From Stegostoma tigrinum (Eukaryota), in NCBI RefSeq assembly GCF_030684315.1, contig NC_081385.1:12806606-12870605 (forward strand): DNA of 64,000 bases, read 5' to 3'. The notes beneath the pieces are model-generated. The model was not told where the DNA came from and searched no databases. It saw only the letters and a program-made list of their open reading frames with translations. Every line of letters starts with the position of its first letter. The first letter of the stretch is position 1. A program made the position numbers and the translations under genes. Shown here piece by piece: positions 15,076 to 63,560 of this stretch.

Positions 15076-15396
15076 GCTGTTGGAGTGTTGGGGAAACTAA
15101 CCAGTTTTTCTTATTGAATGTTGATGTGTTTGTGACCTTCTAAAACAGTGGTAAACACTCCACTTTGCGTTTTAGTTGCCGGGATTATAACGTTCTTGGA
15201 GCAAATGGGTCTTTTTGGAAGGCTGTTGAAATGGGAATAGTACGTAGGGAACAGTGGTGTATGTAATATTTTGATGCGTAAATCTATCCTATCCCTAGTG
15301 TTGGTGGCAGAATGTATTCTGACTGAAGTAAATGCAGAATAAGAAGTGAGGAAACAAAATCTGGCAGGTCAAGAAGTCTATAATTTAAATTCTAGT

Positions 15397-15591
15397 GAGA
15401 TAACAAGGTGTAGAGCTGGATGAACACAGCAGGCCAGGCAGCATCAGAGGAGCAGGAAAGCTGACATTTTGGGTCTGGACCCTTCTTCAGAAATGCTTTC
15501 CTGCTCCTCTGCTACCAGGCCTGATGTGTTCATCGAACTCTACACCTTGTTATCTCAGATTCTCCAGCATCAGCAGTTCCTGCTATCTCCC
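15397..15591. mobile_element. Fold-back Penelope-derived mini-element
   Basis: Inverted arms ~15397-15461 and ~15495-15557 of the Penelope terminal sequence. Flanking direct repeat ATTTAAATT(C)(T/C)AGT at 15383-15396 and 15592-15605. Confidence 0.85.
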
Positions 15592-15799
15592 ATTTAAATT
15601 CCAGTTTTGTTTTGTATAATAGTCTTTTCAATCGCACTTGATCTGAACTTTGTGACTTCCAATTAAATTTGACCTTTTCAGTCAGTTTACAAAATTGCTT
15701 GGTGAATTTTATCTGTGCAACACTGCTTTGTCTTAATCCACAAGTGAAAATGCCCAGCTTCACAATGATTTAAAGTCAAAATACACTTTCTGTTTGCAG

Positions 15800-16454: not shown

Positions 16455-16636
16455 GTTTTGAAGTAATGGAAGAAGGTTATTTGGCCAAGATTCTGATACC
16501 TGAGGGTACCCGGGATGTTCCTCTTGGGACAACGCTGTGCATCATTGTAGAAAAGGAATCAGACATTTCAGCATTTGCTGATTACGTGGAAACTGGAGTT
16601 GCTGATATTAAGCCTCAACCAACGCCTCCAATTCCA
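16455..16636 (+). CDS. DLAT: DLAT exon 6
   Basis: tag|..[43 protein letters not shown]...PPIP|gtaaga. Confidence 0.97.
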
Positions 16637-16966: not shown

Positions 16967-16992
16967 GTAAGCTGCATGGAAATTGAAAATTT

Positions 16993-17120
16993 CTGATGAA
17001 GCGTCTAGGCCCGAAACATCAGCTTTTGTGCTCCTAAGATGCTGCTTGGCCTGCTGTGTTCGTCCAGCTCCGCACTTTGTTATCTTGGATCCTCCAGCAT
17101 CTGCAGTTACCATTATCTCT
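16993..17120 (+). mobile_element. Solo Penelope (Neptune-type) 3' terminus with hammerhead-like core
   Basis: CTGATGAAGCGTCTAGGCCCGAAACATCAGCTTTTGTGCTCC..., nearly identical to the terminus at 56526-56614. Confidence 0.85.
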
Positions 17121-39150: not shown

Positions 39151-39989
39151 ATGTTTTTAACAAAGAATAATGTTTTCTAATAATTATTATATCTTCCCAA
39201 ACTGCTCCCATTAATACCTTGAAACGATCAAATTAAACCATGTCTTAAGCTTCTAAATTCCAGAGAATACAACTTGTAATTTCCCTTTGTAATTTAATCA
39301 TTGGAGTCCAGATATTATTCTATAAATTCAAGCTACGCTCTTTTTCCCAAAAAAAATTCTGCCTGAAGTGTGTTGACCAGAACTAATCAGTCTAGGCCAG
39401 AAACGTCAGCTTTTGTGCTCCAAAGATGCTGCTTGGCATGCTGTGTTCGTCCAGCTGCACACTTAGAATACAAGATAACAACCAACCAGGAGTTTGTAGA
39501 GCTAAAGAACAGCTTTTACCCCTTTGTACATTTCATTAGCCTTTTTGATTATTATCTGTACTTGTTCTAAGCAGTGAATTGGGTAAATGTAAATCTTTGG
39601 GTAAATGTTAAAATCATAATTTAAATATTATAGAATGCATGTGAAAATTAGCTTAATGCAAATCCTTCACAATCCAGGCACTATTACTTTGTACTTTGTT
39701 ATAAAGATTAATCAATGTGTTCTTTGTACTGCTTTCTCTGTTATCATTGTGGTGGATCTCTGGGGCAGTTGTGCCCTAGATCAGCGTCAATGGCGATTGC
39801 TAGAAGCTAGGCAGTTAACAAACAATTTCTAAGAAGGTACAGCTACTGATTATAATCTCTTACATCATTAACAAGGCATACCAGATTTGGCATAAGCTCT
39901 TTACAATATAGTTTTCTCTAAAATCCTCTGTCCTAATTCACCTTGTTTGTTCCTTGAGGTTGTGAAATAATTCTCATTCCTATTCTAAC

Positions 39990-40880
39990 CACGCGTGACA
40001 TTTTTCCATAACCACCCTTGCCTGCCTTGTGGAGAGACCACTCTCTCCATGACACCCTTGTCCACTCCACACTCCCCTCCAACCCCACCACACTCGGCAC
40101 CTTCCCCTGCAACCGCAGGAAGTGCTACACTTGCCCCCACAACTCCTCCCCTCACCCCCATCCCAGGCCCCAACATGACTTTCCATATTAAGCAGATGTT
40201 AGCCTGCACATCTGCCACTGTGGTATACTGCATCCACTGTACTCTGTGTGGCTTCCTCTACATTGGGGAAACCAAGCGGAGGCTTGGGTACTGCTTTGCA
40301 GAACACCTCCCCTCGGTTTGCAATAAACAACTGCACCTCCCAGTTGTGAACCATTTTAACTCTCTCCTCCCATTCTTCAGATGATATGTCCATCCTGGGC
40401 CTCCTACAGTGCCATAATGATGCCACTCAAAGGTTGCAGGAACAGCAACTCATATTCCGCTTGGGAACCCTGCAGCCCAAGGGTATCAATGTGGACTTCA
40501 CAAGCTTCAAAATCTCCCCCTCCTCCACCGCATCCCAAAACCAGCCTAGCTTGTCCCCGCTTCCCTAACTTGTTCTTCCTCTCACCTATCCTCTCCACCT
40601 CAAGCCGCACCTCCATTTCTCACCTACCAACCTCATCCCCCTTCCTTGACCTGCCTCTCCTCCCTGGACTGACCTGTCCCCTCCTCATCCATACCCTCCT
40701 CTCCACCTATCTTCTCCTTTATCCATCTTCAATCTGCCTTCCCCCTCTCCCTATTTATTTCAGAACCCTCTTCCCCATCCCCCTCTCTGATTGAAGGGTT
40801 TAGGACCGAAACGTCAGCTTTTGTGCTCTTGAGATGCTGCTTGGCCTGCCGTGTTCATCTACCTTCACACTTTGTTCTCC
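39990..40880 (+). mobile_element. Penelope-like element (Neptune-type) 3' fragment: GIY-YIG endonuclease region plus terminus
   Basis: VVYCIHCTLCGFLYIGETKRRLG; same family as 55047-56614 but more diverged and frameshifted. Terminal hammerhead core is mutated (CTGATTGA..). Confidence 0.92.
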
Positions 40881-41439
40881 TGAATTCCCTGACTGGATTA
40901 GTGAAGGTGGAGCCTTTGTTCTGGGTGTGATGGTAATTAGACCATAAGGTTTCCTTGGTGATACACACCATCAACAAGCACCGCCAGAGGAATCCCACCT
41001 GCGCTCTGACTGGCTCCCTGCCAACCAGTCACTTGCGGACAATTCGTTTCGAGCCAATCAGAAGCAGAGGGATCGAGATGTGCTCTCCTGATAGGTGAAA
41101 CGTTGGTCCACTGAGGAAACAGCAAAAAGTAGGAAAGCCCGAAATTCAAAACATAAAGGTTTCCTCTAAACCTGAAGCAATTTCAAACCGCTCTGGCATC
41201 TCGCTGGTAATGTCCTTGCCTCTGGGAAAGAAGAACCTGCATTTAAGTCCTACCTTGTCCGGAGTTGGGTCACACGACCCTGAAGGGAATCATAGGGCGG
41301 GAGGATGCCATTCGGCCCGTCTCCTTCCCCCGTACTGGTGCTATCACCCGGTGCCAACCTCCTGCATTCCCCCCCCCCCACATCCCTTCAACACGTTTCT
41401 ATCCGAATAATGTCTCAGTAAATATTGACTCGGCAGTTC

Positions 41440-42420: not shown

Positions 42421-42609
42421 CCTTCCACCCTCCCACCACCAAATATCCCACACTCTTCCCTCTCCGGCAAAGAAACCCGGACTCCCCTAAAAATCTGCCT
42501 GAATCCAGCCTGATCCCCTCGTCACCCCAACTCTGTCAAAATCCGTTTACTCTGGCCCTGTCCCTCCAATAAATCGCCGACTCCCTAAAAACCTGTCTAA
42601 TTCAGCCCT

Positions 42610-42733
42610 CTTAGGAGCGTCTAGGCCCGAAACGTCAGCTTTTGTGCTCCTAAGATGCTGCTGGGCCTGCTGTGTTCATCCAACTCCACACTTTGTTATC
42701 TCGGATTCTCCAGCATCTGCAGTTCCCATTATC
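42610..42733 (+). mobile_element. 5'-truncated Penelope terminus with perfect 14-bp TSD
   Basis: GCGTCTAGGCCCGAAACGTCAGCTTTTGTG...CCCATTATC flanked by TCTAATTCAGCCCT at 42596-42609 and 42734-42747. Confidence 0.9.
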
Positions 42734-44856
42734 TCTAATTCAGCCCTGTTCGAAATGGTAACCAATCTCTGACAGAAAATCAGTCTTCCTCGTTACCACT
42801 TTAAATGTTAATTTCCGTATCTTGAATCTCTAAATCCTAGCTGTAGGATCCAATCTCTCACGTTTTCTTACCATCTATGCTGTCAAGCCCTTGGTGTCTG
42901 ATTGTATGGTACAGGTGTCTAGAAGAGACTAGGATATTTTTACAAAGAATAAAAGTTTTATAGGAAGGGTCTTTGTGGCACAGTGGTAGCGTCCCTAACT
43001 CAATTCCCACCTGCTCCAGATGTAGTATCTAAACATATCTGAATAAGTTGGTTAAAAATGTCTAAAATGTTTCAGGACAGTGACAAAGAGGTGAGAAAAT
43101 GGGATTAGCTCTGTTTCCTCTCATGCAAGGAATTCCAAATGACCTCTTCCTGAACCACAACCATTCTATAATTGTCACAGCATCCCCATATCTTTTTCAC
43201 TCTCCTTGTGACTGTAAATCCGTTGTTTTAAGCAAAAAAATCTCTTGTTGGACTGGTATATTTACTCCAGTCAAATTGCATAAAAGCATAAAATTCTACA
43301 AGAAAATTTCAAACAGCATCCAGGAAGAAAGTTTAATGATCTTAAATCAGAACATTACTGAACTACAGACAGACAAATAAGCAAACATTTTTCCCTATTG
43401 ATTCAGTAAGTGGAAGAGCTTCTTTTGTACATTGAAAGTAAAGTCTCTTCATGGCAAAAGCAAAATATTTTCAGTGTTGTAGTATTATAGATAACTCTGA
43501 GAAGGCAGCAAATGCTGGAAATACTCAGTAGGTTAGGCAGAATTTGCGGAGCGAGAAACACGCAACACTTCATCTGAACTAACAATTGTTAGAAATGTAT
43601 ATGTTTTAGGGAAGTTGAAGGGATGAATGGGAAGAACAAAGTGATGGTTGCCAGAAAGTTGAAATGACGACAGGTTTCATGGTTCACAAATCAAGGGGGA
43701 GTGGTAATGATACTCGTAAAGCTAAAATTGTCTATAAGTGTAAATGATAGGGCAGCAGTCACTTGGTCACAAAATAAAGGTGCACAAGAAAGGATCAAGA
43801 GGTGAAAGCTGAAATAGTGAAAATGCATATATACACATCAGGGCAGAGGATATTCCTTAAAATTGTTGTGCACAGTGTTGAGCTTCAATGGAAAAGCCTA
43901 AGGACACAAAAGTCACAGTGGAAACAAGATGGGAGAATTGAAATGACAAGTGTTAGGAAGCTCAGAATCATGCTTGAGGACTGAATGAAAATACATGCAA
44001 AGTATTCACCCAGTTTTAATGGCTTTTCACTTAGTAGCTAAGGACTAGATTTACTTATTGAACATCCACAGTTCGTGCATTGTTGCAAAGAGAGGAATGA
44101 TCAGTAGAAAATCAGAAATTATTTATTCAGTTTTCTAAACTGAAATAGAAATATCAACACTGCAATAAAAAAATCACATTTTAGTAATATCTTAAGTGGC
44201 CCTCTCCTAATAATATTTTTATTTTCTGGGTGAGGATTATTTTTAAATTATTCATGTTTTAGTTGGCACAAACTCTCTAAAGTTTCCACTAATCTTCACA
44301 AGCCAAATGAATACTAATCTAATCTAGTCTTCAGAAGGATCCACTAAAGAGCAGCAGGCATGATTATTTGTTTGAATTGTGTAAACTCTCAAGACAAAAG
44401 TCTGAGACCCTGTAAATTCTGCTTTTTAGTCCGTTATGTTAGATAAATGTTTCAGATATTTTCAGAGGCCAGAGGTATGCTTGTATTTTGGGGCTATTTC
44501 CTCCAGGTTTTCTCAACTCTCTCCTGTTCTGAAGGCAGCGATTGTTCCATAGGTTATGGCAACAGGATTTTCAAGCAGCATTCAACCATTCCTTTCCATG
44601 CGCAATTCTAGTATGTGGATGGTCAGTGAAATACTTGGCCATATAATACCACAGACAAGACTATTGTCTTCAACCTGCAAATTATTCCAGTAACGGTTGC
44701 TGGGTAGCGCAGTGATCAAGGTTCTTGGTTTTTCTCTCTCATTTAGCTTGCATTAAAGAAAAATCGCAAAGATTGTGGAAAGCAATTTGTAGCTCCTCTA
44801 CTGTGATTTAGGCTGAAACTTAGATTTTTTTTTCTTTATTTAGCAGAACAGCCACA

Positions 44857-44925: not shown

Positions 44926-45348
44926 GTAAATTTGCTCCATTTAAGTTTGTAAATTCAAGTTAAGAATGTTTCAGTGTGACAATGCTCACACAAAAGAATC
45001 TTCCAGTTGGATAATAATCTTACTGCATTATGTAGACTATGGATCTGTAATGTCATGTTTAATCATTTTAGTTTATAGTTTTATATTTAGTAACATTGCA
45101 ATATACCATGGAGTAGGTAACTAAACATTATAATTTTTAGAATTAATTTTTAAATGCGTATTCATATTGTCACAACTGCAGGATATCTCATGTTTAATTG
45201 GAATTTCTTAAGGATCTCTTACTTCCGTTTGTTTTTATGCTGCCACCAACAAAACGTGCATGTGCATGACACTTTTTAGTTAGGTATCCCAAGATGCTTC
45301 ATAGGAGCAGTATAAAGCAAAATTTGACATTAGGAATGTAGGGTGATA

Positions 45349-46654
45349 CATTCAGTTCTGCTATAACACATGTTGTAGCAATGCACGTTGGCTATAATGC
45401 AACTAACGAAGAGGTGAATGCTATTTCTAAAACACGTACTTGTCTTGGCTGTAATGTGATTCCATCAGTGCTGCTCATCCTGGATAATGTGCCAAGCCAT
45501 CCTCCCACCATTGGTGAACTTACTGAAAACATCAAAGTGCTACTTCTACCCCCAAACACAGCCTGTCTCCTTCAACCCATGGACCAGGGTGCAGTAGCAC
45601 CTTTTCAAGCTTATTATTTAAGGCGCTCATTTAAGAGGCTGATTGCAGCCACTGAGGGAGATAATGACAATTCTTCAATTTTGAAAGACCATTACCATCA
45701 AAAATACAATTCACATCAACATGGAGGCCAGGGATGATGTCAGTAAGGACTGCTTGCATGCAGTTTGAGGGAAATTTCTCCCAGACATTTTTCAAGATTT
45801 TAAATCAAGATTTTGCTGAGTCAGAGGAGCTCCCAAGAATCAAAGAACATTGTGTTGCTCTTGCAAAACAAGTTGGATTTGAAGAAGTGGAGAGTGAGGA
45901 TATTGAAGAGTTCCTTGACTCCCACGGTGAAAACCTCTCTCCAGCTGATTTACAACAACTTGTCGCTGAGCGAGAAGTGGAAGCTAGAAATGAAGTAGAA
46001 GTAGTCCAGGATGCAGAACCACGAGAGCTTTCCACTTCTGTTTTGTCCTCTATCCTGAGGGAAATTGAGAAGCAGTTGCAACTCTTAGAGGACAAAGATT
46101 ACAAAGTAGAATGGAGCAGGGTAGCAGTTTGTGGAATAAGATCTTATTTGGCACCCTATGAACAACTTTTTCATGAAACAAGAAAATGGGCAAGGCAGCA
46201 AAACATGGATTTTCTTTTTTAAGCCAACCCTCAAGAAACAGCCAGAAGACAATGAACCACAGCCATCTGCTTCTGGATTAACGATTTTTCACCCTCACCC
46301 TGCAACCATAACTGTGCCTTAAGGTGATGATGATGATGATGATGATGATGACGACCGTCGGCCCCTGCATTGACAGCAGACCAACCTCAAAATCTCCTCC
46401 CCCAACAAGTCATCTTGACATTTTTTTTCAAGGTAAGGTGTTAAATTTATGTTTATTTCATTATTAGATATGAATTTAAAAATTATTCAAACTGTGCTAT
46501 CCTTTGTTCAAGGCTTCTGAGTGATTTTGAATGTTATTTGGTGGTCTGCTCCTACCCCTGCTTTTCCCATAGGTCCTGTTATTTTTATAGTGCAATTTTC
46601 TATAACACAATGTTTTGCACGAGCGCAACTATCGCAGTTTAGCAGAACCGACTG
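45349..46654 (+). mobile_element. pogo/Tigger-type DNA transposon, internally deleted
   Basis: TA TSDs at 45347-48 and 46655-56. Imperfect TIRs CATTCAGTTCTGCTA / TAGCAGAACCGACTG. DDE_1 fragment LLILDNVPSHP...LLPPNTACLLQPMDQG; the N-terminal HTH is missing and the ORF is frameshifted. Confidence 0.9.
46324..46353 (+). repeat. (GAT)n microsatellite
   Basis: About 9 tandem TGA/GAT units within the transposon. Confidence 0.9.
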
Positions 46655-48558: not shown

Positions 48559-48790
48559 CAAAAACAGAAAGCCCTGTAGAAGCTCATCAGGTCTGGCAGC
48601 ATCTACGGAGAGACAGAACCAGTGTTAACAAGTGTTAACATTTCAAATCCAATGACCCCTTGTCAGAACGTCTGGGCTCAATATGTTAACTCTGTTTCTC
48701 TCTCTACAGATGCTGTCAGACCTGCTGAGCTTCTACAGGGCTTTCTGTTTTTGTTTCAGATTTCCAGCATCTGCAGTTCTTTGTTCTTAT
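48559..48790. mobile_element. Fold-back Penelope-derived mini-element (second family)
   Basis: Arms 48559-48630 and 48684-48753 are reverse complements; tail CAGATTTCCAGCATCTGCAGTTCTTTG. Confidence 0.8.
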
Positions 48791-51612: not shown

Positions 51613-52356
51613 TGGCAGAAGTTTAGTAACTTGACAAAACACAATAAGAGACAGGTTGCGTGTGCTAGATAAGATGATGTCCCCTGTTCTGGTTATTGTT
51701 AATCATTAAGGCTGATAGTGAGAAGAAGCTAGGTCTTCCATTTGCTGAAAGAATTACTGGAACCTAGAGGAGCATTCAGACATCTAAGCTCTTTTAGTGT
51801 ACTACTCAAGAACTTGCCTGATTAGTATTGATGTAGGTCTAGGAGAGGGTAGGTTTCCTTCTTTACTAACAATAGGACAGTGCATGCATTACAAGAGGAT
51901 AGACGTTATGAGGCTTCAGTAAAATAAAGTTTGGAATTTTAAATTTGCACACGCACAATTATAATGCGGGGGAGTCTGTTAGCTCAGTAAACCGTGTAAC
52001 CACTTAGCCAAAGCCTCTGGGGTCTTGGGACTCTGCCAGTTCTCTGAGATAAGGCACAGTAGTTAGATGTATTGTGGAAAGAAATTGCACTGGAAAAGTG
52101 TTTGATCTTACTCGAGTATCGGTGTACAATGAAGAGATTTGAGTGATCGAGTGCGTGTAAAATATTGCTTCATGGAAATATCATTCATTCAATATTTTTT
52201 GCTTTAATAGCAGGCCAGGTAGCACCAGATGGGCAGGAAAGCTGACATTTCGGGTCGGGACCCTTCTTCAGAAATAGCTATCTGTATTAAGATTATTTGT
52301 TTCTTTTTATTTTAAGTCATGTATTTATACTGACACATATGGTTTTGTTTATTCAG

Positions 52357-52410: not shown

Positions 52411-52519
52411 GTAATTTTAAAAAGAGGCTCAGCATGGTTGTAAGTGCAGAGACCTACTGTAAATCTAACATGAAAAGAATATTGGGGACAACTAAGAAAG
52501 ACTTGAATATATCTATAGT

Positions 52520-52830
52520 GCCTTTGCTGATCTGACGATATTTTAATGTGTTTCACAGCCAGTGAAGTACTTTTGAAGCATAATCTCTTTTGTAACAAAG
52601 AAAACATGGAGTCAAATTGCACATGGCAAACTCCTACAGACGGATATGTGATAATCATCAATTTATCTGTTTTTGCATTGTTGGCTGAGGGATAAATAAT
52701 GGCCAGGGCACTGGTGATAATACTTTGGACATCTTCAACATCATAGAATCTTTTACACCCGCCTGAGACGGCAGACAAGGCTTGCATTTTAACATCATAT
52801 CTGGACACTGCCACCTCACAAGTGAATATG
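52520..52830 (-). mobile_element. DeuSINE-like element (AmnSINE1/SacSINE1 Deu domain)
   Basis: The reverse complement GAGGTGGCAG...GATGTTAAA...TGTCTGCCGTCTCAGGCGGGTGTAAAAGATTC...CCCTGGCCATTATTTATCCCTCAGCCAAC resembles the recalled Deu-domain consensus. Confidence 0.6.
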
Positions 52831-52984
52831 AGGAGTTTTAGCATGGGAAGAGTATTGAATGGTGAGTCAAATGTCACCTTGAATTCCTATTTGCAATTCC
52901 CGCCCTGACGTATGTCCTGGTGTTGGACACAGAGAATACAGGATTGATGTGAGTTTGCCCGCTGAGCTGGAAGGTTAGTTTTCA

Positions 52985-53018
52985 GACGTTTCGTCACCAT
53001 TCTAGGTAACATCATCAG
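52985..53018 (-). ncRNA. Minimal type I hammerhead ribozyme motif (antisense copy)
   Basis: Exact reverse complement of 56741-56774. Confidence 0.75.
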
Positions 53019-53849
53019 TGAGCCTCCGATGAAGCGCTGGTGTAATGTCCCGCTTTCTAGTTATCTGTTTAGGTTTTCTTGGGTTGGTGATGTCATTTCC
53101 GAATGCAGTTTCGTTTGTGTGCGTTGGGATGGTTTAGAATGGTTTGGGATGCATTAGGGGGATGCATTAGAACATTATTCCAACGAGCCACCACACACTG
53201 CAGCACAGAGGAACTGCGAAGAGCAGAAGAAAATCACCTATACAGCGTATTCAAAAAGAACGGGTACCCTATGAACACAGTCCGCCGATTTCTCAGCAAC
53301 ACACCCAAACGAACAGACAAAACAGGCCCAGAAACCATAATCACTCTCCCCTACATCATTTCCGAAATGACTGCCAGAATACTCTGACCTCTTGGCATCA
53401 GGGTAGCCCACAAACCCACCAACACACTAAAACAGCAACTAATGAACTTAAAATACCCTATACAGACATCAAGCAAAACGAACGTCATCTACAAAATACC
53501 TTGCAAGAACTGTGAGAAACACTACATTGGACAAACAGGCAGAAAGCTAGCCACCAGGATACATGAACATCAACTAGCCACAAAACGACATGACCCACTA
53601 TCATTAGTATCCTTACATACAGATGAGGAAGGACACCACTTTGATTGGGACAACACATCCATCCTAGGACAAGCCAAACAGAGACACGCACAAAAATTCC
53701 TAGAAGCATGGTATTCCAACCGGAACTCCATCAACAAACACATTGATTTGGAGATAATGGGAACTGCAGATGCTGGAGATTCCAAGATAATAAAATGTGA
53801 GGCTGGATGAACACAGCAGGCCAAGCAGCATCTCAGGAGCACAAAAGCT

Positions 53850-53877
53850 GACGTTTCGGGCCTAGACCCTTCATCAG
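53850..53877 (-). ncRNA. Minimal hammerhead ribozyme motif (antisense copy)
   Basis: Exact reverse complement of 56526-56553. Confidence 0.65.
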
Positions 53878-56525
53878 AGAGGGGGATGGGGGGAGGGAAC
53901 TGGAATAAATAGGGAGAGAGGGGGAGGCGGACCGAAGATGGAGAGTAAAGAAGATAGGTGGAGAGGGTGTAGGTGGGGAGGTAGGGAGGGGATAGGTCAG
54001 TCCAGGGAAGACGGACAGGTCAAGGAGGTGGGATGAGGTTAGTAGGTAGCTGGGGGTGCGGCTTGGGGTGGGAGGAAGGGATGGGTGAGAGGAAGAACCG
54101 GTTAGGGAGGCAGAGACAGGTTGGACTGGTTTTGGGATGCAGTGGGTGGGGGGGAAGAGCTGGGCTGGTTGTGTGGTGCAGTGGGGGGAGGGGATGAACT
54201 GGGCTGGTTTAGGGATGCAGTAGGGGCAGGGGAGATTTTGAAACTGGTGAAGTCCACATTGATACCATTAGGCTGCAGGGTTCCCAGGCGGAATATGAGT
54301 TGCTGTTCCTGCAACCTTCGGGTGGCATCATTGTGGCAGTGCAGGAGGCCCATGATGGACATGTCATCAAGAGAATGGGAGGGGGAGTGGAAATGGTTTG
54401 CGACTGGGAGGTGCAGTTGTTTGTTGCGAACTGAGCGGAGGTGTTCTGCAAAGCGGTCCCCAAGCCTCCGCTTGGTTTCCCCAATGTAGAGGAAGCCGCA
54501 CCGGGTACAGTGGATGCAGTATACCACATTGGCAGATGTGCAGGTGAACCTCTGCTTAATGTGGAATGTCATCTTGGGGCCTGGGATGGGGGTGAGGGAG
54601 GAGGTGTGGGGGCAAGTGTAGCATTTCCTGCGGTTGCAGGGGAAGGTTCCGGGTGTGGTGGGGTTGGAGGGCAGTGTGGAGCGAACAAGGGAGTTACGGA
54701 GAGAGTGGTCTCTCCGGAAAGCAGACAGGGGAGGGGATGGAAAAATGTCTTGGGTGTTGGGGTCGGATTGTAAATGGCGGAAGTGTCGGAGGATAATGCG
54801 TTGTATCCGGAGGTTGGTAGGGTGGTGTGTGAGAACGAGGGGGATCCTCTTGGGGCGGTTGTGGCGGGGGCGGGGTGTGAGGGATGTGTTGCGGGAAATG
54901 CGGGAGACGCGGTCAAGGGCGTTCTCAATCACCGTGGGGGGAAAGTTGCGGTCCTTAAAGAACTTGGACATCTGGGATGTGCGGGAGTGGAATGTCTTAT
55001 TGTGGGAGCAGATGCGGCGGAGGCGGAGGAATTGGGAATAGGGGATGGTTACGTGGAACAGTCCCTCTTCCGCACCTACACAGGCCCCAAACCCCACCTC
55101 TTCCTCCGGTACATTGACTGTATCGGCGCCGCCTCTTGCTCCCCAGAGGAGCTCGAACAGTTCATCCACTTCACCAACACCTTCCACCCCAACCTTCAGT
55201 TCACCTGGGCCATCTCCAGCACATCCCTCACCTTCCTGGACCTCTCAGTCTCCATCTCAGGCAACCAGCTTGTAACTGATGTCCATTTCAAGCCCACCGA
55301 CTCCCACAGCTACCTAGAATACACCTCCTCCCACCCACCCTCCTGCAAAAATTCCATCCCCTATTCCCAATTCCTCCGCCTCCGCCGCATCTGCTCCCAC
55401 GATAAGACATTCCACTCCCGCACATCCCAGATGTCCAAGTTCTTTAAGGACCGCAACTTTCCCCCCACGGTGATTGAGAACGCCCTTGACCGCGTCTCCC
55501 GCATTTCCCGCGACACATCCCTCACACCCCGCCCCCGCCACAACCGCCCCAGGAGGATCCCCCTCGTTCTCACACACCACCCTACCAACCTCCGGATACA
55601 ACGCATTATCCTCCGACACTTCCGCCATTTACAATCCGACCCCAACACCCAAGACATTTTTCCATCCCCTCCCCTGTCTGCTTTCCGGAGAGACCACTCT
55701 CTCCGTGACTCCCTTGTTCGCTCCACACTGCCCTCCAACCCCACCACACCCGGCACCTTGCCCTGCAACCGCAGGAAATGCTACACTTGTCCCCACACCT
55801 CCTCCCTCACCCCCATCCCAGGCCCCAAGATGACATTCCACATTAAGCAGAGGTTCACCTGCACATCTGCCAATGTGGTATACTGCATCCACTGTACCCG
55901 GTGCGGCTTCCTCTACATTGGGGAAACCAAGTGGAGGCTTGGGGACCGCTTTGCAGAACACCTCCGCTCAGTTCGCAACAAACAACTGCACCTCCCAGTC
56001 GCAAACCATTTCCACTCCCCCTCCCATTCTCTTGATGACATGTCCATCATGGGCCTCCTGCACTGCCACAATGATGCCACCCGAAGGTTGCAGGAACAGC
56101 AACTCATATTCCGCCTGGGAACCCTGCAGCCATATGGTATCAATGTGGACTTCACCAGTTTCAAAATCTCCCCTTCCCCTACTGCATCCCTAAACCAGCC
56201 CAGTTCATCCCCTCCCCCCACTGCACCACACAACCAGCCCAGCTCTTCCCCCCCCACCCACTGCATCCCAAAACCAGTCCAACCTGTCTCTGCCTCCCTA
56301 ACCGGTTCTTCCTCTCACCCATCCCTTCCTCCCACCCCAAGCCGCACCCCCAGCTACCTACTAACCTCATCCCACCTCCTTGACCTGTCCGTCTTCCCTG
56401 GACTGACCTATCCCCTCCCTACCTCCCCACCTACACCCTCTCCACCTATCTTCTTTACTCTCCATCTTCGGTCCGCCTCCCCCTCTCTCCCTATTTATTC
56501 CAGTTCCCTCCCCCCATCCCCCTCT

Positions 56526-56553
56526 CTGATGAAGGGTCTAGGCCCGAAACGTC
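56526..56553 (+). ncRNA. Minimal hammerhead ribozyme motif of the Neptune element
   Basis: CUGAUGA-A-GGGUC UA GGCCC-GAAA-CG-UC with palindromic ACGU helix III. Helix I is only about 2 bp by eye. Confidence 0.65.
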
Positions 56554-56731
56554 AGCTTTTGTGCTCCTGAGATGCTGCTTGGCCTGCTGTGTTCATCCAG
56601 CCTCACATTTTATTACATTGATTTGGAGCCCATCTACCATCCTCTGAGAAAAAGAACAGGAAATGACATCACCAAACCAAGGAAACCTAAACAGATAAAT
56701 AGAAAGCGTGACATAACACCAGCGCTTCATC

Positions 56732-56790
56732 GGAGGCTCACTGATGATGTTACCTAGAATGGTGACGAAACGTCTGAAAACTAACCTTCC
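56732..56790 (+). ncRNA. Minimal type I hammerhead ribozyme of the Poseidon element
   Basis: UCA-CUGAUGA-U-GUUACC(UAGAAU)GGUGAC-GAAA-CG-UC|UGA. Helix I is UCA/UGA plus distal GGAGG/CCUUCC. Confidence 0.8.
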
Positions 56791-56961
56791 AGCTCAGCGA
56801 GCAAACTCACACCCAGAAACTCAGCCTGAGCTACAAATCTTCTCTAAACTCGCTAATACAGGATTGAATCTAGCAGTGAACGCCTCCACTGTAGAATAGC
56901 AGTTCACTTTCCAGCCTTTCATGTGAGCAGCAACCCCTCACTTAGAGTGCCGGTTGTCATT

Positions 56962-57352
56962 GAAATAAAACAAAATGCTGCAGAGGCTGGAGATTTGAAA
57001 CAAACACACGGAAATGCCTGGAGAAATTCAGTTCTCAAGAAGGGTCACAGGACGCAAAACATTAATTCTGTTTTCTCTCCAAAGAATCTGCCAGACCTGA
57101 GCGTCTCCAGCAATTTCTATTTTTGTTTGTATGAGTTGCCATTGTTTTGGGAAGGAAAAAGAACAAAGATACTAAATCCAAATAAAGCAAAATATTGCAG
57201 ATACCGGAAAAACTCAAATCTGTCAGCGTCTGTGGAGAGAGATAAACTATATTGTCTCAAGTCAGTATGACTCTTCAGAAAATGTTGACTGTTTCTTTCA
57301 CCACAGATGTTGCCATACCTGCTGAGTTTCTCCAGCATTTTCTGTGTTTATT
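56962..57352. mobile_element. Two adjacent old fold-back Penelope mini-elements
   Basis: ~56962-57130 and ~57180-57352 each show AAA..AAAAT.(C/T)TGCAGA..C..G then the inverted ..CCTG(CT)GAG..TCTCCAGCA.TTT, like the element at 48559. Confidence 0.6.
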
Positions 57353-57739
57353 TAAGACGTTATGTCCCTTCAATTGCAGTTACATCTAAGCATGTAAAGC
57401 ATCAAAAGTAAATGTGTAAGATCTGAGAGTTCTTCTACTACTTTACTCTGAACCCAGTAAAATGCTAGCCGAATTATATTCCTCCCCAATAAGCATCACC
57501 TTCACCAGCTGTGTATGACTCCACCACAGGCTGTGCCCTGTTAGCCGGTCTCTGTCTAACTTCTAATTTCAGATTTGCCCCCTATACCAAGTTTGTCAGT
57601 TCCGAGTCTGTCCACCAGAGCCTTGTCTGCCGTCACACTTTTTTTTTGCTTTCAACTCCGTTTTAGTTGCAACATCTGGTCATTTGATATCTGGATCAGG
57701 TGATTGCTTCAATCAAACAAGGGAATCTGCTACTTGTTT

Positions 57740-58396
57740 ATCCCTGAAAGTTTCCACCCAGGTTGATAGGGTTGTTAAGAACGTGCACAGTGTGTTAGGT
57801 TTTATTGGTAGAGGGATTGAGTTTCAGAGCCATGAGGTCATGTCGCAGCTGTACAAAACTCTGCTGCGGCCGCACTTGGAGTATTGCGTACAGTTCTGGT
57901 CGCCGCATTATAGGAAGGATGTGGAAGCGTTGGAAAGGGTGCAGAGGAGATTTACCAGGATGTTGCCTGGTATGGACGGAAGGTCTTATGAGGAAAGGCT
58001 CAGGGACTTAAGGCTGTTTTCGTTAGAGAGAGGAAGGTTAGGAGGTGACCTAATCGAGAAAACAAGGTGATCAGAGGATTAGATAGGTTGGACAATGAGA
58101 GCCTTTTTCCTCAGATGGAGATGGCTAGCACGAGGGGACATAGGTTTAAATTGAGGGGTGATAGATATAGGACAGATGTCAGAGGTAGATTGTTTACTCA
58201 GGTAGTAAGGGCGTGGAATGCCCTACCTGAAACAGTAATAGACTCGCCAAGTTTAAGGGCATTTAAATGGTCATTGGATAAACTTATGGATAATAATGGA
58301 ATAGTGTAGGTTAGATGGGCTTCGGTTTGGTTTCACAGGTTGGCGCAACATTGAGGGCCGAAGCATCTGTACTGCGCTGTAGTGTTCTCTGTTCTA
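57740..58396 (+). mobile_element. CR1/HER1 LINE 3' fragment (relatively young)
   Basis: LYKTLLRPHLEYCVQFWSPHYRKDVEALERVQRRFTRMLPG with a TGTTCT tail. Confidence 0.92.
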
Positions 58397-58640
58397 AAAA
58401 GGAAAAAAGTACAGTTACACTGTGTGAATTGCAAATTTGCCTTGCTTGTGCTGTGGGGCCTCATACTTTTGTCACTGGCAGTGAAAGCAGTCTGTTAGTA
58501 TGATTTTTTTTGCCTCTTCATCTCAGTGATCAACTGTGGCATAATTCCGTTATGCCTGTCTTAGAAATGTCTGCTTCTGGATTAAATAAAGGTTTCTTAA
58601 AACTCAAAGCAAGAATTAACTTGTTATTTTTAATTTCTAG

Positions 58641-62045: not shown

Positions 62046-63560
62046 ATTTAGACATTAGACAATAGGTGCAGGAGCAGACAATTCGGCCCGTCGAGCCAGC
62101 GCCACCATTCATTATGATCATGGCTGAGCATCCACAATCAGTATCCTGTTCCTGCCTTATCCCCATAACCCTTGATTCCACTATCTTTAAGACCTTTATC
62201 CATCTCTTTCTTGAAAGTAGCCAGAGAGTTGGCCTCCACTGCCTTCTGGGGCAGAGCATTCCATATATCCACCACACTCTGGGTGAAGAAGTTTTTCCTC
62301 AACTCTGTTCTAAATGGCCTACCCATTATTTTTAAACTGTGTCCTCTGGTTCTGGACTCACCCATCAGCGGAAACATGCTTCCTGCCTCCAGAGTGTCCA
62401 ATCCTTTAATTATCTTATACTCCTCAATCAGATCCCCTCTCATCCTTCTAAATTCAAGTGTATACAAGCCCAGTCACTCCAATCTTTCAACATATGATAG
62501 TCCCACCATTCCAGGAATTAACCTCGTGAACCCACACTGCACTTCCTCAAATTTGGAGACCAAAACTGCATACAAACCAAACAGGTAGATGAGAGTAAAC
62601 CGGTTGATGTGGTGTATATGGATTTCAGCAAGGCGCTCGATAAGGTTCCCCACAATAGGCTATTGTACAAAATGCGGAGGAATGGAATTGTGGAAGATAT
62701 AGCAGTTTGGATCGGAAATTGGCTTGCTGAAAGAAGATAGAGGGTGTTAGTTGATGGGAAATGTTCATCCTGGAGACCAGTTACTAGTGGTGTACCGCAA
62801 AGGTCGGTGTTGGGTCCACTGCTGTTTGTCATTTTTATAAATGACCTGGATGAGGGCGTAGAAGGATGGGTTAGTGAATTTGCAGACGACACTAAGGTCG
62901 GTGGAGTTGTGGATAGTGACGAAGGATGCTGTAGGTTGCAGAGTGACATAGATAAGCTGCAGAGTTGGGCTGAGAGGTGGCAAATGGAGTTTAATGCAGA
63001 CAAGTGTGAGGTGATGCGCTTTGGTAGGAGTAACCGGAAGGCAAAGTACAGGGCTAATGGTAAGATTCTTGGTAGTGTAGATGAGCAGAGAGATCTCGGT
63101 GTCCATGTACATTGAAACATATAAAATAATCAGAGGGTTAGATAGGGTGGATAGGGAGAGCCTTTTTCCTAGGATGGTGATGGCGAGCATGAGGGGGCAT
63201 AGCTTTAAATTGAGGGGTGAAAGATATAGGACAGATGTCAGAGATAGTTTCTTTACTCAGAGAGTGGGAAGGGAATGGAACGCTTTTCCTGCAACGGTAG
63301 TAGATTCGCCAACTTTAAGTACGTTTAAGTCGTCATTGGATAAGCATATGGACGTACTTGGAATAGTGTAGGTTAGATGGGCTTCAGATCGGTATGACAG
63401 GTCAGCACCACATCGAGGGCCGAAGGGCCTGTACTGTGCTGTAATGTTCTAAGTTCTAATACTCCAGGTGCGGTCTCACTAGAGCCCTGTATAGCTGCAG
63501 AAGGACCTATTTGCTCCTATACTCAATTCCGCTTGTTATGAAGGCCAGCATTACATTTGC
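62046..63560 (-). mobile_element. CR1 LINE 3' fragment (minus strand), split by a nested insertion
   Basis: ORF YTLEFRRMRGDLIEEYKIIKGLD. CCAAAACTGCATACAA (to 62575) rejoins TACTCCAGGTGCGGTCTCAC (from 63460). Confidence 0.88.
62576..63458 (+). mobile_element. CR1/HER1 LINE fragment nested in the opposite orientation
   Basis: VTSGVPQRSVLGPLLFVIFINDLD...FADDTKVGG RT motifs, an internal deletion at ~63110 and a TGTTCTAAGTTCTA tail. Same family as 57740-58396. Confidence 0.92.

Follow-up and report, generated by a model that had tools for sequence, protein, structure and literature searches.

In a 64,000-nt stretch of the genome of Stegostoma tigrinum (hereafter the window, in whose coordinates all positions are given) we found two nested Penelope-like elements (PLEs), a Neptune-type element inside a Poseidon-type one, spanning 52935-56867 within an intron of NKAPD1. 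This layout is real and cleanly preserved, and represents another instance of an arrangement already known for PLEs. Both copies are 5'-truncated and inactive. Each is built of two arms placed head to head, and each such insert would most likely have arisen by two-ended target-primed reverse transcription. The individual features are as follows:

52411-58640, plus: host intron, the last coding intron of NKAPD1, 6230 nt (protein-to-DNA mapping)
52935-52947, plus: outer target-site duplication (TSD), left copy, 13 bp, exact and maximal
52948-53100, minus: outer inverted arm, repeating 153 nt of the Poseidon-type 3' end but not the tail (96.1% identical to 56659-56811; no tail seed)
52985-53018, minus: hammerhead-like core in the outer inverted arm (motif pattern)
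53101-53134, minus: extra inverted internal piece (NHPNAHKRNCI) from the RT-thumb stretch, plus the junction G at 53101 (comparison with relatives)
53135-53162, no strand: filler of short reiterated pieces, with a 12-mer present twice and a 9-mer shared with the 3' end of the element itself (self-comparison)
53163-53753, plus: outer sense arm, part 1, RT thumb and GIY-YIG endonuclease, 5'-truncated (92% identical to relative P0118 over 179 aa)
53740-53753, plus: inner TSD, left copy, 14 bp, within the outer endonuclease ORF, exact and maximal
53754-53787, minus: 34-nt 3' tail of the inner element, confined to the inverted arm (also seen at the end of three other copies in the window)
53788-55048, minus: inner inverted arm, Neptune-type thumb, Cys linker, GIY-YIG and 3' UTR (self-comparison, motif and profile matches)
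53850-53877, minus: hammerhead-like core in the inner inverted arm (motif pattern)
55049-55353, plus: 305 nt unique to the inner sense arm, the end of the RT core (arm comparison)
55354-56614, plus: part of the inner sense arm that pairs with the inverted arm, tail absent (best relative 54% identical over 95% of the query)
56526-56553, plus: hammerhead-like core in the inner sense arm (motif pattern)
56615-56628, plus: inner TSD, right copy, 14 bp, exact and maximal
56629-56811, plus: outer sense arm, part 2 (PIYHPL and the 3' end; tblastn to relative P0117, aa 310-381)
56741-56774, plus: hammerhead-like core in the outer sense arm (motif pattern)
56812-56854, plus: 43-nt 3' tail of the outer element, present on the sense arm and not on the inverted one (arm comparison)
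56855-56867, plus: outer TSD, right copy, 13 bp, exact and maximal

The host gene was identified with the exon at 49.2-49.4 kb as query, for which 13 of 30 candidates passed, the best (93%) coming from Chiloscyllium punctatum. The NKAPD1 protein of this species maps onto five exons between 44.8 and 59.2 kb, and the intron at 52411-58640 has GT..AG ends and leaves an open frame when spliced out. These exon matches, together with the in-frame intron, bear out an earlier sequence-only reading of this DNA, which had named the last NKAPD1 intron as host; the limits that it gave for the nested pair were likewise exact. A separate exon at 16457-16636, for which no Pfam family was recovered, lies in a gene that we take to be DLAT.

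Each element is bracketed by its own perfect TSD, as had been claimed. The outer 13-mer occurs in the window only at 52935 and 56855 and the inner 14-mer only at 53740 and 56615, and neither can be extended; among 5000 random pairs of 60-nt segments lying 2.5-4 kb apart, three had a word of at least 13 nt in common and one a word of 14 nt. Self-comparison, which the sequence-only reading had proposed as the check on its two concentric inverted repeats, displays both of them: an inner one pairing 53788-55048 with 55354-56615 at 99.05% identity (11 mismatches and one gap over 1262 positions) and an outer one pairing 52948-53100 with 56659-56811 at 96.1% (6 of 153 positions differ).

The sense arm of the outer element retains only the thumb and endonuclease, and has suffered one stop codon and a two-codon deletion. 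Its GIY-YIG ORF is interrupted precisely as first read, with the last residues KHIDLE ending at 53753 and the frame picking up again as PIYHPL at 56629. Among its relatives (35 of 70 candidates passed) the closest are proteins of Stegostoma tigrinum itself, with 89-93% identity. Alignment with these relatives displays a gap in the outer element where a Cys linker would stand, and the linker pattern is found in none of the 35; the PMGSP motif of the relatives resembles, by eye, the Penelope and Poseidon rows in Fig. S1 of PMC8557442. No Pfam family matched the outer thumb region. The absence of the Cys linker and the presence of the endonuclease CCHH residues fit the Penelope/Poseidon clade, a name that here would follow from motifs rather than from a reference tree.

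What is left of the inner element starts towards the end of the RT core, and its YID-C stands in place of the YxDD motif of 111 of 115 relatives. These 115 proteins, which passed out of 3007 candidates with a best identity of 54%, mostly combine an RT with an endonuclease. Both inner arms carry the linker CNRRKCYTC, which fits CX2-5CxxC, the linker between RT and endonuclease that defines Neptune (PMC8557442). The linker is separated from the endonuclease by 23 aa, comparable to the 22-26 aa seen in 72 of the 115 relatives (40 were unmatched by the pattern); counted by eye in Fig. S2 of PMC8557442, the same spacing is 25-27 for Neptune (four rows) and about 7 for Nematis (three rows). Thus, the linker, the long spacing (not that of Nematis) and the C-terminal position of the endonuclease (not that of Naiad) fit a Neptune-type element, this assignment too being a putative one made by motif and not with a reference tree.

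Both elements display features of EN+ PLEs. The GIY-YIG domain was matched in all three ORF pieces with E-values of 6e-4 (part 1 of the outer arm) to 3e-3, all below the curated cut-off, and in the CCHH set of the endonuclease C259, H281, H297 and H303 are invariant, and C262 nearly so, across both elements and their relatives. Full-length relatives carry RVT_1 along with GIY-YIG; the local copies keep just the RT end and thumb, and the window holds no full-length copy of either element. Also present are the hallmarks of PLE insertion, namely inverted truncated copies, TSDs of 14 and 13 bp, and a single tail per element, of 34 and 43 nt respectively. All four arms contain a hammerhead-like core motif with stem II, found by pattern matching, and the same core is visible in the RNA of the anole element PAc (PMC11167929). 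An Rfam scan of 52500-57300 at E<=5 returned two chance matches and no hammerhead, and single-strand folds of these regions were no stabler than shuffled sequences (z-scores from +0.47 to -1.77).

The arms also bear on which insertion came first. With one end-effect row set aside from an initial 13 differences, the inner arms differ at 12 of 1262 positions (0.95%), as against 6 of 153 (3.9%; Fisher p=0.009) for the outer ones. Because the inner arms are the less diverged, the data fit an outer element that inserted first, with the inner one following later and in place; the counts are low, that of the outer arms being 6, and the inner arms may have been kept alike by gene conversion. With a rate of 7e-10 per generation (PMC10587355; CI 1.4-14.1e-10) the two insertions would date to about 7 and 28 million generations, figures to which we attach little weight. 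Because the target is itself a repeat, the inner target site can be seen empty in relatives: P0117 reads KHIDLEPIYH, in which the residues coded by the inner TSD are present once, and HIDL[DE]PIY occurs in 7 of the 35 outer-element relatives, 26 of which extend to this region. A third copy of the inner family at 40 kb covers 7 of the 12 sites at which the inner arms differ, and assigns two derived states to the left arm, four to the right and one to neither; 3 of the 11 substitutions are CpG transitions. To judge from these sites, this is the pattern expected of independent decay in two real arms and not of an assembly artefact. No second copy of the outer family, which would polarise its arm differences, was found in the window.

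The two arms of the inner element are asymmetric, with the 34-nt tail present only on the left (53754-53787) and the 305 nt only on the right (55049-55353). Thus, neither arm lies wholly inside the other, whereas plain self-copying predicts that one does. For the outer element, the sense arm does include all of the 153-nt arm, but most of the 33-nt inverted piece comes from upstream of the sense arm's start. The inner junction consists of a GG, perhaps TGG, common to both sides and belonging to a Gly codon (19 of the 20 best relatives have Gly here; the residue pattern preceding the junction matched 85 of 115), and no palindrome was found there. The left end of the inner element has a 3-nt primer-template match; its absence at the outer left end weighs against two-ended priming. 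Eight further matches to the inner 3' end are found in the window, of which three end with the tail, three near the tail-less point and two are partial. One locus, at 15383-15605, repeats the whole layout in miniature: its 14-bp TSD contains a single mismatch, its inverted arm is long and lacks the tail, and its short arm carries it. In both the inner element and this 15.4-kb insert the tail stands on the short arm, whereas that of the outer element stands on the long one. Around the related pieces at 17 kb, 40 kb, 48.5 kb, 52.2 kb and 57 kb a search for TSDs returned nothing above 9 nt.

The outer element contains a third segment, also inverted. The sequence-only reading had noted neither this segment with its filler nor the one-sided tails nor the hammerhead-like cores. 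Read on the minus strand, the 33 nt at 53102-53134 encode NHPNAHKRNCI; the shark relatives P0117 and P0118 read NHPNTHKRSCIRTLF (a pattern present in 15 of 35 relatives), and therefore the inverted piece corresponds to the stretch just upstream of the start of the sense arm (CIRTLF at 53163), with a 6-nt overlap. The hexamer AGAACA adjoins both sides of the implied jump, at 56653-56658 and 53169-53174, and occurs nowhere else in the 817-nt sense arm; 354 of 579882 position pairs have a 6-mer in common. At the junction itself a single G stands in place of the hexamer, and hence remodelling must be assumed, a point against two-ended priming.

We consider it probable that each head-to-head insert arose by priming from both ends of the target. 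In this scheme the GIY-YIG domain would nick the two strands 13-14 nt apart, giving rise to the TSD, and each 3'-OH would prime one cDNA, that begun at the distal start site becoming the tailed arm and that begun at the proximal site the tail-less arm. Both cDNAs would end early and then be joined in the middle, through a 2-3-nt microhomology in the inner element and through a template jump with filler in the outer one. The purified Poseidon protein of the anole cleaves and extends both strands, and uses two internal start sites whose interval equals the tail, with no difference between strands (PMC11167929); the steps beyond initiation lie outside the experiments of that study. We favor two-ended priming because of this demonstrated priming of both strands at two sites, because every insert has exactly one tail, on either the short or the long arm, and because copies of the inner family in the window include both tailed and tail-less ends. 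It is also favored by the coincidence of the inner junction GG with a conserved Gly codon, and by the outer inverted piece meeting the sense 5' end within 6 nt on the RNA, with the hexamer flanking the jump.

The structure of the outer junction suggests, by analogy, that both of its cDNAs were drawn from one RNA in a manner resembling the twin priming of L1. The two arms of an L1 twin-priming product derive from separate stretches of the RNA. In that process cDNA is primed at either side of the break (Ostertag and Kazazian 2001, as described in PMC2246262), and the outer element is alike in that its inverted and sense pieces come together at a single point on the RNA; it differs in that both arms also repeat the 3' end and in that the second primer would be the 153-nt cDNA rather than the target end. 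As a tentative reading, and one that we hold to be somewhat doubtful, the second cDNA would have begun at the tail-less start, copied 153 nt and then made a hexamer-mediated jump of about 600 nt upstream, to the point reached by the first cDNA, which it thereby stopped. Among the titles and abstract openings of the open-access literature we found no description of twin priming in PLEs.

The chief rival is fold-back or self-priming, whereby one cDNA or antisense RNA would copy itself and the endonuclease would strip the tail from one arm during resolution and insertion. This explanation was proposed from the palindromic junctions of rotifer PLEs, with the Discussion of PMC3846280 reading inverted junctions as self-priming on an antisense template, and the one-sided tail has been ascribed to endonuclease resolution of the intermediate (PMC8557442). 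The outer element, with its tail on the long arm and none on the short one, is as this explanation predicts, and to that extent the layout fits fold-back too and counts against two-ended priming; its filler resembles snap-back synthesis, and microhomologies of 2-3 nt at a junction are equally compatible. However, the inner element has its tail on the short arm and 305 unique nt on the long one, which would call for extra asymmetric trimming; the 15.4-kb insert has the same polarity; the inner junction lacks a palindrome; and two start sites account for the tail directly (PMC11167929). We hold fold-back with such trimming to be unlikely. The sequence-only reading had described the locus as a nested double fold-back: two nested elements, each with its own TSD and inverted terminus and with the inner one arriving later, are upheld, but not fold-back as the mechanism for the inner element, since each of its arms has sequence that the other lacks.

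It is very improbable that each inverted pair combines two separate insertions at the same site, or results from a later inverted duplication at the DNA level. The PLE endonuclease is able to cut its own pLTR (PMC11167929) and the arms do differ, at 12 and 6 positions, but a single TSD brackets each pair with none inside, the inner arms are 99% alike as against 88% for the other long copy in the window, and duplication cannot supply a tail that the other arm lacks. We give still less credence to the Neptune copy having entered a donor Poseidon elsewhere, with the composite then moving here as one RNA: PLEs are able to transport foreign DNA enclosed by their termini (PMC3846280), but such a history would make the inner arms no younger than the outer ones, and they are in fact younger (0.95% versus 3.9%), and a 1.26-kb RNA duplex would probably hinder reverse transcription. 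An artefact of chimeric fold-back reads is the least credible explanation, for although inverted PLE structures are said to trouble short-read assemblies (PMC8557442), it would create neither TSDs nor a family-typical tail on one arm, nor inner arms differing at 12 sites with derived states on both sides and CpG transitions among them.

Much of this architecture has precedents. An inverted 5'-truncated copy with a one-sided tail of 30-40 bp is typical of PLEs (PMC8557442), and inverted terminal repeats flank the commonest form of Penelope in Drosophila virilis (PMC2377424). The inverted 5'-truncated copy, the tail at one end, the TSD and the putative hammerhead motif at the 3' end are all shared with the canonical EN+ layout described in these two papers, from which the present elements differ in having no upstream pLTR or partial tandem, in both arms being truncated inside the ORF and in the outer tail measuring 43 nt. 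Another parallel is Pen2a_Av of Adineta vaga (PMC3846280), likewise a PLE within a PLE: it lies in Pen3, has an inverted terminus, and carries a one-sided tail of 31 bp and a TSD of 9 bp. However, Pen2a_Av is full-length and lies in the opposite orientation to its host element, whereas here the long arms run in the same direction, the elements belong to different clades and both TSDs survive. By architecture and description the outer element is also akin to Poseidon_Ac (PAc) of the green anole (PMC11167929), a Penelope/Poseidon-type element with two start sites and a tail. The likeness extends to a hammerhead-like core that precedes the distal end by some 80-95 nt (80 nt in the outer and 95 nt in the inner element) and to the bottom strand of the outer TSD ending in ATT, the motif preferred by PAc; the local copies, unlike PAc, are dead and truncated. 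Neptune and Poseidon are widely found together in vertebrates (bioRxiv 10.64898/2026.07.22.740005), and we found in the open-access literature no paper describing PLE insertions in sharks.

The locus itself matters little, being composed of two dead elements in a known layout. For the host, the NKAPD1 pre-mRNA would carry a 1.26-kb inverted repeat of 99% identity with a 305-nt loop, making it a likely source of long double-stranded RNA, along with two sense-strand hammerhead-like cores. The value of the locus lies in offering a clean case for how PLEs finish integration, given that the in vitro work ends at initiation and older work favors self-priming. The side on which the tail stands separates the models of integration and lends itself to counting across whole genomes. 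Were such junctions common, shark genomes would hold a large and readable record of late PLE integration in the form of tail side, arm lengths and jump points, and such a record, if true, could decide between two-ended priming and self-priming.

A third head-to-head insert in the window, a short relative of the inner, Neptune-type Penelope-like element (PLE) family, lies at 15383-15605 within an intron of a gene that we take to be DLAT, with the following parts:

15383-15605, bracketed by a 14-bp TSD with one mismatch
15397-15494, inverted arm, without the tail
15495-15591, sense arm, with the tail

The same family is also represented by direct copies. One, at 42596-42750, is a short copy of the 3' end that carries the tail and has a TSD of 14-17 bp, the first bases of which overlap the end of the tail. 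The other, at 39997-40882, is an older copy (identity 88% and 81%) that is 5'-truncated, frameshifted and lacks the tail, and a search around it recovered no clear TSD. In the 3' region of the inner element itself there are 3-4 imperfect tandem units of 39 nt, at 54122-54233 and 56169-56286; the alignment of the copy near 40 kb to this region is gapped and its identity lower. The hammerhead-like 3' end of this family recurs in short copies at three further places:

16992-17119
39390-39464
52209-52272, 85 nt upstream of an NKAPD1 exon

Another inverted pair, with arms of 55 nt (91% identity) and a spacer of 85 nt, is seen at 48559-48790; it has a tail-like word on the right side only, and no clear TSD was found around it. 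The whole nested element lies between the members of a 19-nt inverted pair (95%) at 52764-52782 and 57619-57637, which is probably either a chance occurrence or the remains of an old repeat. Elsewhere in the window, 57750-58400 and 62570-63460 contain fragments resembling CR1-type LINEs, although the ORF at 57567-58070 gave no real match in a Pfam search. Reading frames at 45342-46222 resemble a pogo/Tigger-type transposase remnant.

As for the outer, Poseidon-type family, a protein search found pieces of it inside five annotated shark host-gene isoforms (protein matches P0123, P0140, P0147, P0148 and P0149), namely those of MAP3K7, CUEDC2, an EYA3-like gene, a WBP2-like gene and one unnamed gene. 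These pieces could reflect either exonisation of the element or errors of annotation.
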